Shown here: piece after piece, positions 160 through 29,479 of the stretch | Numbering within the stretch: position 1 is the stretch's first letter | Layout of the letters: the number at the start of each line of letters is the position of its first letter | From: an uncultured Chlamydiae bacterium | GTDB taxonomy: Bacteria; Chlamydiota; Chlamydiia; Chlamydiales; JAJFMA01 | Length of the DNA stretch: 64,000 nt | Assembly (NCBI GenBank): GCA_963713615.1 | Contig: CAVQMM010000001.1 | Location: 1,344,001-1,408,000 of the forward strand | Direction of reading: 5' to 3' | Notes under the pieces: model-generated | The model's database searches: none | What the model was told of the DNA's origin: nothing | The model's input: only the letters and a program-made list of their open reading frames with translations | Translations under genes and position numbers: made by a program

Positions 160-769
160 GAGGCAATTTCAGAAGTATTTGGGCTCTCATGGATCGATTC
201 TTTGGAAAAAAAATCACTTTTTTTTGTGAGAAGGCGATTCGGGAGAGCTTAAGTGGTATGGCACTATCCAGTCTGGAAAGACAGGCTTTTCTCCCTTCCC
301 AGGCCCGAAGGGTCGATATTGCAACAGGCCATGGCATCGCCACATAGGCCTCAACCTAACAGGTCTTTTGAGCTTATATCTCAATGACTTAGGACTTCAC
401 AATCGTATCTCGGCGCGCAGCGCTTTGGAGTGCGGTCGCTTGCGACCGCTTTTCGTTCCTTGGGACGGCAATGCTAAACGGCATTGTATGGATTCGTCGA
501 AGGCTGCATGTACTAACTATTTTACCCTTAGGGAATTATAGTAATGCCGTTGCACACGACCGTCGCAAGGAACCCAAAGCGGTCGCAAGCGACCGCACTC
601 CAAAGCGCTGCGCGCCGAGATACGATTGTTAGGCTTAGGTTGAGGCCTATGTGGCGATGCCATGGCCTGTTGCAATATCGACCCTTCGGGCCTGGGAAGG
701 GAATGACTCTCTCTTCACCGGCATCCGATTTTCAGGAAATTGACTTCGGAAAATCGGACTTCTGCAATT
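160..769. mobile_element. Nested palindromic MITE, family A copy 1 (right end slightly truncated)
   Basis: Left end GAGGCAATTTCAGAAGT (160) is a variant of the TIR GAGGTAATTGCAGAAGT seen at 4953, 9378, 25191 and 29071. Right end ACTTCTGCAATT (758-769) lacks ACCTC. Internal perfect inverted repeats 292-359/635-702 (68 bp) and 399-452/576-629 (54 bp). Near-identical inverted copy at 4953-7869. Confidence 0.85.
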
Positions 770-833
770 GGACGAACTGGACTGATTGGACAACATGGAC
801 CTTAAAGATAGGTCCATGCTGTCCAGACACCTT

Positions 834-2813
834 TTAGGAATTATCTTGTTGCGCTGGCCTAGGTTCAACGATGTTAAACCAAAAAGGGAAAGCATCCAGC
901 AATCCCAAGAAATTGGTAAGCGTTTTTTGGTTACCTTCCATCACCAATTTCTTACTATCGGTCAATCCCTTGATGGTCTGTTGTCCTGTGATGATCGCAT
1001 TCAAATCCGAACGCTTCACTGTAATGGTAGCATCCGCTTTTCCTGTCTTGTCCTTGAAATAATTCAAAACTCCATTTTTGACCTGCACGAAAAAACTTTC
1101 CTTCTTATCCGGAAAAACCAAATTGAACGAAACGGGGTTTTCGGAAGCTCTAGGCCCATCTAAGCGCACTGCCAGATAGTCTAAAAGCAGCTCAGTAGGC
1201 ATTGCCGCAACCATATCTGGACTAGCAGGATTCGGTGTCTGGGTAGGCTTAACCCCTTGACGTAGTTCTTGAGCACCTGACAAATAGAAATTACGCCAAG
1301 TCCCATTTTCTGCCTGATAGCCAAGCTGCTCCAAAGTATCTGCAAGGAAATCCTTAGCGGCCTTATTGCTCGGATCAGCATAGACAACATGATTGACTAC
1401 TTGAGCGACCCAGCGATAATTCCCATTCTTATAGTCGTCACGAGCCTTATCTAAAACAGCACTTGCGCCACCCATGTATTTCACATACTGCTTGCTAGCC
1501 TCGACAGGAGGCAGCTGATGCAAGGTTGAAGGATTGCCATCAAACCAGCCTAAATAAAGGTTATAGACTGCCTTGGCATTGTGATTTGTGCTGCCATAAT
1601 AGCCTCGGTTGTACCATTCTTGATCTAAGCTCTTGGGCAACTTCACCATTTCCCCCACCTCTAGCATCGTGTAGCCCTGGTTGGCCAGTCGCAGAGATTG
1701 ATCGTGAAGGTATTTGTACATATCCCTTTGTTTTTCTATATAGTCGTTGGCACGAGCATTGCCCCAAACTGGCCAATGGTGCTGACCAAACACGATTTCC
1801 ATTTGCGGACCAAACATCGCTATAGCCTGATTAAGGTATCTGGCCCAAGCTCTGGCATCTCTGATCTTGGCTCCGCGCAGCGAATAGAGGTTATGCATCG
1901 TGTGGGATGCATCCTCAGCGATGTCTAAAGCCTTAAATTGTGGCAAATAAAACAGCATCTCCGCCGGCGCCTCGGAATCTGGTGCCATGATAAAGACAAA
2001 ATCCACACCATCGACGGTCAACTTTTCGCCCGTCTCTGTGATCAACTTCGTTGGTGCAATCAAGGATACTTCACCCGTCGAAGTCGTAAGCCCCAAACCA
2101 GAGGTCACTTGCCCAGTAGGTCCAGGCTTAAGCAAGTTGCCATACATATAACCCGCACGACGTCCCATCGCCGTTCCGGCCATCACGTTTTCATCCAAGG
2201 CAGCATCGAGAAACCCCGCAGGAGCTATTACCTCGATTTTTCCCGAATCAACATCCTGCTGCGAAATAATCCCTTTGACGCCACCAAAGTGGTCGACATG
2301 ACTATGACTGTATATCACAGCTTTAATGGCCTTGTGAGGTCGATTTTGAAAATATAGCGCAAGAGCAGCTTTAGCAGTCTCCATGGATATCAAAGGATCA
2401 ATAACGATGATACCGGTATCCCCCTCAATAATCGTCATGTTGGATAAGTCAGCACCGCGTACTTGATAGATACGGTCCGTAACTTTGTACAGACCTGCAG
2501 CATGGAGCAGCTGCCCCTGACGCCATAGGCTCGGGTTCACTGTGGGAGGGCTGGGTTGGTTGGTGCCTAAAAAGTCCCATCTGCTTAAATCCCAGACAAT
2601 CTCACCCTTGTCGTTGCGAATGATCCCTCCATTAGGTAGGGGAGCAATCAAACCCCGATTGGCATCCTCAAAATCTTGCCTATTACCAAAATTTAGCTCC
2701 TGAAGAACCTTGTTGTTAGAGGCTTGTGTGACATCAGAAGCTGTGTCAGCAAGCAGGGCTGCCTGGACTAGTAGTGCTGAAGAGACGATAAAACCTAATG
2801 ATTTGTATGCCAT
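834..2813 (-). CDS. Alkyl/aryl-sulfatase, SdsA1/YjcS (BDS1) family, metallo-beta-lactamase fold, with signal peptide
   Basis: 659 aa. HSHVDH metal motif; NPSLWRQ, GYYG and LGWFDGNP family motifs; C-terminal SCP2-like region; hydrophobic N-terminal leader. Confidence 0.93.
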   Translation of the reverse strand: MAYKSLGFIVSSALLVQAALLADTASDVTQASNNKVLQELNFGNRQDFEDANRGLIAPLPNGGIIRNDKGEIVWDLSRWDFLGTNQPSPPTVNPSLWRQGQLLHAAGLYKVTDRIYQVRGADLSNMTIIEGDTGIIVIDPLISMETAKAALALYFQNRPHKAIKAVIYSHSHVDHFGGVKGIISQQDVDSGKIEVIAPAGFLDAALDENVMAGTAMGRRAGYMYGNLLKPGPTGQVTSGLGLTTSTGEVSLIAPTKLITETGEKLTVDGVDFVFIMAPDSEAPAEMLFYLPQFKALDIAEDASHTMHNLYSLRGAKIRDARAWARYLNQAIAMFGPQMEIVFGQHHWPVWGNARANDYIEKQRDMYKYLHDQSLRLANQGYTMLEVGEMVKLPKSLDQEWYNRGYYGSTNHNAKAVYNLYLGWFDGNPSTLHQLPPVEASKQYVKYMGGASAVLDKARDDYKNGNYRWVAQVVNHVVYADPSNKAAKDFLADTLEQLGYQAENGTWRNFYLSGAQELRQGVKPTQTPNPASPDMVAAMPTELLLDYLAVRLDGPRASENPVSFNLVFPDKKESFFVQVKNGVLNYFKDKTGKADATITVKRSDLNAIITGQQTIKGLTDSKKLVMEGNQKTLTNFLGLLDAFPFWFNIVEPRPAQQDNS

Positions 2814-28828: not shown

Positions 28829-29070
28829 AATAGATGTTGAAAAAAAATCTAATTGACGGGGATTCTATATGCAACATTATTTTTAGTCTACAAATTCCTA
28901 TATCAAATAATTCAAGTAGATATAGGCAAAGACATTGAAGAGGATTCAGGAATGATGATTGTGAGAACTTAGGTTGATGTGTAGCTTCACGCGTGTTATT
29001 CGTTGATAGTTAATTTCTTATGTTCGTTTGAATAGAAATTATTTCTGCCCCAAGGCTATGCTGACGAATT

Positions 29071-29479
29071 GAGGTAATTACAGAAGTCCTCTGAACTTTT
29101 GTAGGTAAGTGTCAATGCCTTACACATCATCGAATAACACGCGCGTAGCGCTCTGGAGCCCCAACCGACTGCGTCGCCAATATCCGAAAGTAACAAGGCT
29201 TCCTATGTGGCGCAGTCATTCCATGACTGCAAACAATCCATTGCAATTGTGGAGACGTGCAAAACAAACGTCCCATGGGATGCAAACGGAATCTGTTTCA
29301 ACCGTTCTCGCAATCATGGAATGCATAGTGTTGCACATATCTTTTTCTTGACTCACAATCGTATCTCGGCGCGCAGCGCTTTGGAACTCCAAAGTCTCCA
29401 AAGCGCTGCGCGCCGATTAACGCTTGTGAGGGCTTAGGTCGATGGTGTGTGTAGCACGCGAGACTTCTGCAATTACCTC
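29071..29479. mobile_element. Family A MITE copy 5 (third type of cargo)
   Basis: GAGGTAATTACAGAAGT (29071) and ACTTCTGCAATTACCTC (ends 29479). AATT duplicated on both sides; the empty site is the palindrome GACGAATTCGTC. Interior built from modules of 24949-25013 and 399-430. Confidence 0.88.

Follow-up and report, generated by a model that had tools for sequence, protein, structure and literature searches.

MITEPgRS and BrickBuilt of Porphyromonas gingivalis and ATR of Neisseria are, in the available text of PMC2575886 and PMC4596501, MITEs with TIRs of the IS5 family and a variable interior made of repeat modules. Slow REPINs are contrasted with fast MITEs in the accessible part of bioRxiv 2021.07.10.451892, where IS1106-linked RAYT genes in Neisseria represent help from a DDE element. 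Hybrid copies of REP-targeting ISs, which lack matching direct repeats, are explained by recombination in the main text of PMC1525189. Among the chlamydiae, Rhabdochlamydia oedothoracis shows an IS expansion with 415 transposase genes, as described in the portion available of PMC9723776.

The window analysed here, a stretch of 64,000 nucleotides, contains repeats inserted into one another, as an earlier note on this DNA had recognised. These stacks are real and recur more than 100 times in the genome. They probably consist of non-autonomous mobile repeats, each layer of which entered another repeat at a site defined by sequence, while recombination between copies would account for the other variants. 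What can be read directly in the DNA are the layers with their ends, target duplications and fixed registers, and also genes whose ends or flanks match.

Elements of the window

The 17-bp TIR occurs eight times in the window at two mismatches or fewer (chance mean 0.02). It bounds elements at 160-769 (copy 1), 4953-7869 (copy 2), 9378-9811 (copy 3) and 29071-29479 (copy 5), with a half copy at 25191, all exactly where the earlier note had placed them, and the 4-bp duplications that it gave are present: TTAT in copy 2, TTTA in copy 3 and AATT in copy 5. Its list of layers was incomplete, since the nonamer target arrays, the IS4-type layer and the 2295-bp IS66 in copy 2 had been overlooked. The features are the following, with the strand where one is assigned:

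146..159 (+), target layer next to copy 1, a GGAC nonamer flank identified by sequence, in the register GGAC-N-NNNN before the TIR
160..769 (-), copy 1, shell with the B end left and the A end right (last 5 TIR bases missing), REPIN arms and an IS4-type MITE inside, no GTGG doublet
343..651, 309-bp IS4-type MITE of copy 1, 11-mer flanks inverted, not direct
399..629, GGAG REP pair inside the IS4-type MITE of copy 1, 54-bp arms at 399-452 and 576-629
770..825, GGAC/GTCC nonamer arrays right of copy 1
4953..7869 (+), copy 2, shell, TTAT duplication at 4949-4952 and 7870-7873, 614 bp without IS66
5076..7687, IS4-type MITE of copy 2, enlarged by IS66, with its 11-mer flanks inverted
5146..7440 (+), complete IS66 in the GGAG hairpin of copy 2, 8-bp duplication at 5138-5145 and 7441-7448 (NF033517, 355 bits, cut-off 180)
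5203..5790 (+), IS66 TnpA+TnpB ORF, 195 aa
5867..7411 (+), IS66 DDE transposase, 514 aa
9311..9377 (+), left nonamer array, with spacer, of the inverted-array element that is interrupted by copy 3
9378..9811 (+), copy 3, basic shell of the 432 class, TTTA duplication
9453..9677, REPIN-like unit of copy 3, arms at 9461-9489 and 9642-9670 around the GTGG doublet at 9519-9613, outer limits approximate
9812..9860 (-), right nonamer array of the target of copy 3
25090..25190 (+), left end of a variant IS4-type MITE, which adjoins a REPIN-arm 11-mer and leads up to the GTCC that serves the half shell as its site
25191..25305 (+), half shell, A end and partial REPIN arm
25314..25473, 160-bp MITE of a separate family, 8-bp duplication
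29071..29479, copy 5, same TIR, AATT duplication, filled with an IS66-like end, a further REP type and GGAG arms

The left TIR of copy 1 shows two mismatches, in addition to the truncation on the right. The perfect inverted repeats of 68 and 54 bp that had been ascribed to copies 1 and 2 are found in copy 1, whereas copy 2, after in silico removal of IS66, shows 54 and 50 bp. The 68/54-bp repeats are composite, with parts from three different elements. With IS66 left out, copy 2 is identical to copy 1 in 599 of 615 columns. The GTGG doublet described for copy 3 is present, and copy 5 indeed shares the TIR and holds other modules; it represents a separate shell lineage. The half copy lies within the end of an IS4-type MITE (25090) and is split by the third, 160-bp MITE.

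The shell family and its target

The genome-wide search that the earlier note proposed shows that the TIR recurs, with 320 ends and 122 inward pairs, and these pairs, together with the 4-bp duplications, uphold its reading of the shell as a transposed MITE. The shells have the TIRs, the short non-coding body, the many copies and the target-site duplication of a MITE, and their lengths have modes near 432 and 752 bp. Direct 4-mers flank 46 of 115 shell pairs (shuffled mean 6.7, maximum 16), and more than half of the pairs are without an exact duplication. Duplications are found in 31 of the 42 pairs with the flank combination expected from a single insertion and in six of 42 with the other two combinations, all six being palindromic 4-mers. 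For the pairs lacking an exact duplication, we infer a recombinational origin of the shell.

GGAC is located 5 nt from the TIR at 115 of the 320 shell ends and GTCC 4 nt from it at 105 of the 320, with 0.8 expected per position in each case; the register in the nonamer array is GGAC-N-NNNN, then the TIR. Both TIGR04258 genes of the genome, which encode four-helix-bundle proteins, are flanked by nonamer arrays, and uninterrupted inverted-array elements are present at C1:2440730, 589950 and 700700. The fixed nonamer register is missing in genomes G352, G030 and G292. The repeats around four-helix-bundle genes, so far unexplained, are now tied to a defined insertion register.

The IS4-type and IS66 layers

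The inner IS4-type MITE shows an 11-bp duplication in 71 of 93 pairs. Elements of the IS4 family (NF033592, 214.6 bits, cut-off 115) in G003 and G006 have ends 2-4 mismatches from those of the inner MITE and an 11-bp duplication, so that the 309-bp layer has the ends and the duplication length of an IS4-derived MITE. IS4-type ends also enclose shells, which does not bear out the one-way hierarchy of the earlier note. Within the GGAG hairpin are 17 of the 18 IS66 copies, and IS66 shows TnpA, TnpB, the DDE TnpC, terminal repeats and the 8-bp duplication.

Identity among 47 copies of the 309-bp MITE is 99.7%, while their host shells average 92%, and by its sequence the inner MITE has the appearance of a very recent arrival. 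In the shell tree, whose bootstrap had not settled, it occurs on scattered branches, with at least six changes forced by well-supported branches. From this difference in identity and this scatter, it appears mostly to have invaded resident, already diverged shells many times and not to have ridden one composite; gene conversion among copies could also scatter it over the tree.

The earlier note had the composite mobilised by the outer TIR. A model in which a single composite was assembled for each cargo type and that TIR then spread it whole, with modules swapped between shells, is improbable and already weakened. The basic 432-class shell is such a composite, spread with its REPIN in 38 of the paired elements, and fillings other than the REPIN are also found under the same TIR. 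Groups of identical host shells carry the inner MITE, and three loci have long flanks in common around a 752-bp composite, by which some composites were copied whole. Against spread as a unit, the inner MITE is much more recent than the shells that host it, it occurs in four isomers (17/17/9/7), host-specific variants of the 11-mer are duplicated on both of its sides, and the nearest neighbour has the same isomer in just 5 of 37 carriers.

Copies 1 and 2 also speak against it. In a 1072-bp element at C1:1015135, both arms are filled, and its pop-out product, with the inner MITE inverted, agrees with copies 1 and 2 in 602 and 603 of 615 columns (98%), compared with 525-526 of 653 columns before that inversion. 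One extra inversion is required for the match. The 11-mer flanks of both copies are inverted, as pop-out would give. Pop-out from a doubly filled shell is the best explanation of copies 1 and 2, in place of cargo swaps, and the "swappable cargo" suggested for copies 1-3 is not supported as such.

REPIN-like units and Y1 genes

The hairpins are REP-type units, in agreement with the earlier note, and Y1/RAYT genes are located elsewhere in the genome. The RAYT gene at L006 (NF047646, 83.7, cut-off 80) has GGAG REP arrays on both sides, and is thus the REP-flanked RAYT gene that the earlier note suggested looking for; for the GGAG layer, gene and repeat are arranged as in REP-RAYT systems. The other unit, that of layer 2 in the order given below, has an array at the Y1 gene of L003. 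Because this gene scores as IS200/IS605 (57.6, cut-off 55; REP_Tyr 22.4 against 80) and the array lies on its 3' side only, which is not the two-sided flanking of a RAYT gene, the layer-2 unit is classed as REPIN-like and not as a canonical REPIN. The unit of copy 3 matches this array at 75-81% over about 220 bp.

In this genome, 126 of 140 layer-2 units are in or inward of shell ends, and the region around the gene-side array holds six of the remaining 14. Matches to the GGAG arm are away from shells in 173 of 361 cases, so the GGAG REP spread by other routes too. In other genomes, namely G251 (89% over 256 bp) and G352, the shell cargo matches the flanks of a Y1 gene from its own genome, and in G026 it does so weakly; the cargo of G003 is unmatched to its own six Y1 loci, and G002 has no Y1 gene and its cargo matched no Y1 locus.

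It is quite unlikely that Y1/RAYT enzymes placed REPINs site by site into pre-existing empty shells, the REPINs spreading by their own enzyme. This genome has intact Y1 genes accompanied by matching repeat arrays, and the GGAG matches outside shells fit such spread, but no empty shell (A end joined straight to B end) is found among the shells of the genome, and every shell has the layer-2 REPIN at one and the same position, with hardly any copies outside the shells. The copy number of a REPIN-like family can be the work of a DDE transposase, a point that bears on studies in which REPIN counts are taken as a measure of RAYT activity or host benefit.

Parent transposases

The search for a transposase with the shell TIR, which the earlier note had also proposed, succeeded in part: near-matching autonomous ISs are found in other genomes only, and neither the parent transposase of the shell nor that of the inner MITE is found in this genome. 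Complete ISs in G105, G286 and G219 have a TIR at both ends with 2 mismatches from the shell TIR, and in G154 the IS ends are 1 mismatch away and are accompanied by a 167-bp MITE of its own. A 4-bp duplication flanks three of the five complete parent-like copies (range 4-5 bp). The G105 and G154 copies, whose transposase has 389 aa, exceed the cut-off of PF05598 (DUF772 N-terminal) and combine DUF772, DDE and a short duplication. The curated IS1182 and IS5 cut-offs are not reached (NF033551, 74-87 bits against 270; NF033581, 36-62 against 140), and similarity between the interiors of shell and parent IS is weak (76% over 38 nt, E 0.046). The putative parent of the shell is assigned to an IS1182/IS5-like clan of DDE transposases by TIR and duplication length only. 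A TIR-led gene at L195 passes as IS1182 (326 bits), with its far end off the contig.

In this genome, all TIR pairs longer than 1 kb held known ISs or host genes, no lone TIR end led to a new transposase, and profile searches gave no matches to PF05598 or to PF07592, the controls for PF07592 being silent too. Matches to PF01609 and PF13546 have other ends and were ruled out as the shell transposase. A scan of contigs of other genomes with the exact TIR (89 loci of about 340) shows shells in Chlamydiae and a few other phyla, with many chance coding hits and no transposase-bearing pair, and 30 DUF772 loci from the class have no flanking TIR pair within 4 mismatches.

Genomic setting and host function

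Shells are located in convergent or divergent gaps in 26 of 43 cases, against 508 of 1389 background gaps, and their fold is very stable (z = -21). Both observations would suit stacks maintained because they serve the host, for example as hairpins at transcript ends or as nucleoid sites. Nevertheless, the fold is explained by nested inverted repeats and the gap bias fits selection against insertion within operons; moreover, in the fumC-atpK gap the entire insert is absent in all three relatives of the genus, and an Rfam search of positions 1-30000 gave no match, making a host function very unlikely. Contigs of four public runs, compared outside the 24-30.5 kb region, cover the unique DNA in short pieces and bridge no shell site. 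That the palindromes are assembly artefacts is hardly credible, because target duplications are site-specific at three nested levels, modules and shell-spacer-shell junctions recur in these contigs (four runs, up to four studies), and in other genomes this TIR encloses different fillings.

Proposed order of events

Site-directed stacking followed by recombination remains the preferred explanation, and we infer an order of layers from 0 to 4. In step 0, inverted arrays of the GGAC nonamer would have spread from four-helix-bundle gene cassettes. In step 1, a transposase of the IS1182/IS5-like DDE clan, now missing here, would have put a MITE at a fixed phase of the array with a 4-bp duplication. 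In step 2, this shell MITE would already have carried the REPIN-like unit from a Y1-transposase locus, thereby spreading the REPIN. In step 3, the IS4-type 309-bp MITE would later have made repeated site-directed insertions at an 11-bp quasi-palindrome in one or the other REPIN arm, and in step 4, IS66 and a second IS would have inserted in the GGAG REP hairpin inside the 309-bp MITE. When both arms of the palindrome are filled, recombination between the two direct copies could delete or amplify the middle. Such recombination would yield copies 1 and 2, from which the doublet is lost, forms in which the doublet lies on either side, shells whose duplications do not match, and shells in tandem arrays. 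The process is probably driven by selfish spread into harmless intergenic repeats.

A wider proposal is put forward tentatively, and is rather less likely to hold than not. In Chlamydiia and other phyla, an unclassified lineage of IS1182/IS5-like transposases that targets short repeats may have repeatedly captured RAYT-type REPINs in its shells and become their main vehicle. With IS4-type MITEs invading those REPINs and enclosing the nonamer arrays targeted by the shell, this would form a closed cycle of parasites, in which the four-helix-bundle arrays would count as one more REP-like class and act as the landing pad.

In these stacks, repeat-on-repeat targeting is fully resolved in a natural example: every step has left a duplication scar, and four of the five layers have candidate enzymes. 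Given these scars and enzymes, the choice of target is directly testable. Nothing in them points to new chemistry or to a host function.

Comparison with known systems

In the literature consulted, mostly open papers without supplements, no account was found of this TIR family, of REPINs carried inside MITE shells or of repeats that surround TIGR04258 genes. The supplements of PMC3733652 list REP families and may include REPs of this genome. The earlier note called such repeat loads unexpected in Chlamydiae as classically described; for environmental chlamydiae, however, large numbers of ISs have already been published (PMC9723776, available portion). A heavy load of mobile elements is common to R. 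oedothoracis and this genome; in the same portion of that paper, the account concerns transposase-bearing ISs and genome reduction, not MITEs or REPs, whereas the present genome is large (3.97 Mb).

Tetranucleotide-tagged hairpin pairs and a Y1 gene flanked by the same repeats are shared with REP/REPIN-RAYT systems and TIRtrons, as these appear in the available text of PMC3733652 and bioRxiv 2021.07.10.451892. Unlike in those systems, most layer-2 units sit inside DDE MITEs, and MITE shells carrying REPINs are not described in the accessible part of the preprint. The REP-targeting IS1397, IS621, ISPpu9/10 and ISRm22, which include a member of the IS4 family, likewise insert at a fixed position of the REP (PMC1525189, main text). 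In contrast to them, the homing elements here include non-autonomous MITEs and IS66, which does not occur in that main text, and they form a targeting chain of four steps.

The B-type end of the shell matches the ISNme1 TIR printed in PMC4596501 at 11 of 15 positions. The interiors of MITEPgRS, BrickBuilt and ATR are tandem direct repeats in the text available, whereas here they are a REPIN with site-specific MITE and IS layers; also unlike these elements, the shell has as its target a fixed phase in another repeat and exceeds 100 copies. All the parts are of known kinds, and what is new is the chain of targeting and the carriage of REPINs by a DDE element.

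Shell copies and their genomic distribution

The 3.97 Mb genome under study (G000, 99% complete; contig C1) shows 320 ends of the 17-bp shell TIR, of two types, A and B, which form 122 inward pairs and leave 76 lone ends. Shell lengths have modes near 432, 752 and 3055 bp, and the 101 paired elements below 1.1 kb take up 56.7 kb. In the window (C1:1344001-1408000), the TIR has eight matches at up to two mismatches (0.02 by chance). As the earlier note describes, three 4-bp duplications are present, as are inverted repeats of 68 bp and 54 bp. The window shells are:

160-769, copy 1
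4953-7869, copy 2
9378-9811, copy 3
25191, half shell
29071-29479, copy 5

A direct 4-mer flanks 46 of the 115 pairs of up to 3.3 kb (seven longer pairs were set aside), against a shuffled mean of 6.7 and a maximum of 16 in 5000 shuffles. Among 401 genomes of the class, the number of ends at one mismatch is highest in G000 by a wide margin, at 299, with 128 in G352, 90 in G251 and 38 in G002. Named records in which this TIR encloses palindromic fillings come mostly from Chlamydiae, which suggests a chlamydial identity for G000. Since fumC directly abuts atpK in three genus relatives, the 593-bp gap containing copy 3 in G000 is lineage-specific. At the right end of copy 1 (746-790), five TIR bases are missing and the expected duplication is absent, consistent with slippage having dropped exactly one 9-bp unit. 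Shells also occur head-to-tail, five to nine per array, with a constant 22- or 43-bp spacer and a CRISPR-like look, and three of the four loci have common outer flanks:

C1:476526-478848, shell array
C1:1173286-1175600, shell array
C1:2273505-2280484, shell array
C1:2600817-2603400, shell array

Two window ORFs were also noted. A 251-aa ORF (25222-25977) resembles by eye a partial duplicate of the adjacent 883-aa gene (26177-28828) and extends into the half element; Pfam gave no match for either gene. A 426-aa ORF (58350-59630) matches weakly the eukaryote-type SH2 domain (PF00017, 26.9 bits, cut-off 21).

Target of the shell and its probable parent transposase

GGAC lies five bases before the TIR at 115 of the 320 ends and GTCC four bases before it at 105, where 0.8 is expected per position. 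The GGAC nonamer arrays have a 9-bp period and commonly form an inverted pair with a spacer between; uninterrupted ones are present in G000, and taking out copy 3 with one TTTA rebuilds one. A shell end touches 53 of 120 array clusters. A single insertion in a direct array leaves a GGAC-type flank on one side and a GTCC-type flank on the other. The duplication is found in 31 of 42 pairs of this kind and in six of 42 pairs with same-type flanks, all palindromic. The register is kept at 6/7 ends in G002, 4/6 in G251 and 3/4 in G003, and was not seen in G030 or G292; in G352, all seven ends lie in another fixed palindrome, six of them reading as GTAG-tagged. Genome-wide, 225 array clusters were counted in G000. 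Inverted arrays bracket both of its TIGR04258 four-helix-bundle-suffix genes, several in relatives are likewise flanked, and a literature search found no paper on repeats around these genes:

C1:3217620-3218186, TIGR04258 gene (L151)
C1:1850780-1851364, TIGR04258 gene (L153)

No parent transposase of the shell was found in G000. Tracing the TIR positions through related genomes pointed to a 389-aa DUF772/DDE transposase, homologues of which occur in 23 of 400 genomes. In complete IS copies in G105, G286 and G219, the TIR at either end differs by two mismatches, and three of five copies read have a 4-bp duplication; G154 contains IS ends one mismatch away and its own 167-bp MITE. These proteins score best with the IS1182 and IS5 models, yet under the cut-offs, and are therefore placed in neither. 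A relative in G281 is inserted in GTCC-N5-GGAC within a REP-like unit, so repeat targeting recurs in this lineage. Relatives of the shell's transposase or of the shell (L214, L228, L239 and L240 in G281; L197 in G352) use other fixed targets, namely the centre of such a GTCC-N5-GGAC site and a GTAG-tagged palindrome.

A separate MITE family comprises 140 pairs, 123 of them 160 bp long, with an 8-bp duplication in 114 and no obvious target preference. A 1883-bp copy with the same ends (C1:1035800-1037682) encodes a 559-aa protein and is the likely parent. The window members are:

25314-25473, 160-bp MITE
49926-50085, 160-bp MITE
57542, part of a 160-bp MITE

REPIN-like unit and 309-bp insert

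The basic 432-bp class (38 pairs, including copy 3) consists of the A end, a REPIN-like unit of about 225 bp and the B end; no shell without filling was found in G000. The unit also occurs in an array downstream of a single 150-aa IS200-like Y1 gene. Of its 140 loci, 126 fall inside shell ends or inward of them, from which we infer that it owes most copies to the shell; six of the 14 others lie in the region of the gene-side array. When one or two cargos per genome were compared with the Y1-gene flanks of the same genome, G251 matched at 89% over 256 bp, G352 also matched, G026 matched weakly, and G003 and G002 gave no match. The shell-bounded filling at C1:3816692-3816937 resembles by eye the repeat that borders a third Y1 gene (L002) and looks like a further REPIN capture.

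The 752-bp class differs from the 432-bp class by a 309-bp IS4-type insert and an 11-bp duplication, a layer absent from the earlier note. The insert has its own TIR and exactly 11 bp duplicated at 71 of 93 pairs, in either REPIN arm. IS4 elements of G003 and G006 show ends two to four mismatches from it and an 11-bp duplication; tblastn of G000 found no gene of a matching IS4 element. Repeated homing of the insert into resident shells gives the best fit: identity is 99.7% across the 47 inserts compared, against 92% for their hosts; each of the four arm/orientation isomers is represented (17, 17, 9 and 7); on the host tree, the carriers require 14 changes, of which at least six are forced by well-supported branches (bootstrap not settled); and the nearest neighbour has the same isomer in just five of 37 carriers. 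Gene conversion among copies could also have scattered the insert. The earlier proposal that the outer TIR spread the composite as a unit conflicts with these identities and isomers. At three loci, 752-bp composites share 144-180 bp plus about 52 bp of flank, so some composites were copied whole. The 752-bp composites with long shared flanks (C1:309695, 656695, 3645703) point to a still larger outer unit, within which two arm isomers indicate an inverted interior.

Origin of the interiors of copies 1 and 2

Copy 2 contains a complete IS66 (5146-7440, 8-bp duplication), overlooked in the earlier note; without it, 614 bp remain, identical to copy 1 at 599 of 615 columns. In both copies the 11-mers around the insert are inverted, not direct, and the GTGG doublet is absent. 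In a 1072-bp element (C1:1015135), each arm contains a copy of the insert, the two in direct orientation, and recombination between these copies would remove the middle and give a 615-bp product. With the insert inverted, this product is identical to copies 1 and 2 at 602 and 603 of 615 columns, against 525-526 of 653 without inversion. Elements with the GTGG doublet on both sides are also present. The same logic would produce same-type shell flanks and the tandem shell and short-spacer arrays at four loci. The inverted 11-mers, the missing doublet and the near match to this product favour such recombination over the cargo swapping formerly proposed for copies 1 and 2. Some shells do differ truly in their filling: copy 5 and several elements of 246-355 bp, alike in the TIR alone, belong to separate shell lineages. 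Nor is nesting one-way, as variant ends of the IS4 type continue into nonamer sites that contain shells (e.g., window 25090-25191).

Within the insert is the GGAG REP pair, and the same REP lies on both sides of a 196-aa RAYT (NF047646, 83.7 against 80); it is also common beyond shells, where 173 of 361 arm matches are found. In G000, 17 of 18 IS66 copies are in the GGAG REP hairpin, where they occupy both arms in both orientations and show 8-bp duplications; a 545-aa DDE element has all six of its copies next to the hairpin. Side elements are provisionally labelled IS1634-like, IS110 and ISL3-like. A further REP-like hairpin family counts 46 loci in the genome, 37 of which lie apart from shells; in the window:

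18954-19060, REP-like hairpin
24950-25045, REP-like hairpin
29150-29230, REP-like hairpin
58207, REP-like hairpin

Comparison with known systems

The modules, the hairpin without IS and junctions of the shell-spacer-shell type recur in contigs of four public runs, one of which may be the source sample; the depth at a shell end in one run reaches 134 against about 2 for the neighbouring unique gene, a depth that sums other organisms too. A literature search found no description of this repeat-on-repeat chain. The parts of the sources available already describe MITEs with modular interiors (PMC2575886, PMC4596501), REP-RAYT systems (PMC3733652, bioRxiv 2021.07.10.451892), REP-targeting IS (PMC1525189, PMC3184786) and IS-rich environmental chlamydiae (PMC9723776). 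The nested stack is real and well resolved, its component kinds are already known and this variant is new. Hybrid ISRm22 copies are explained by recombination in the available part of that study (PMC1525189), the same explanation as offered here for the window copies.
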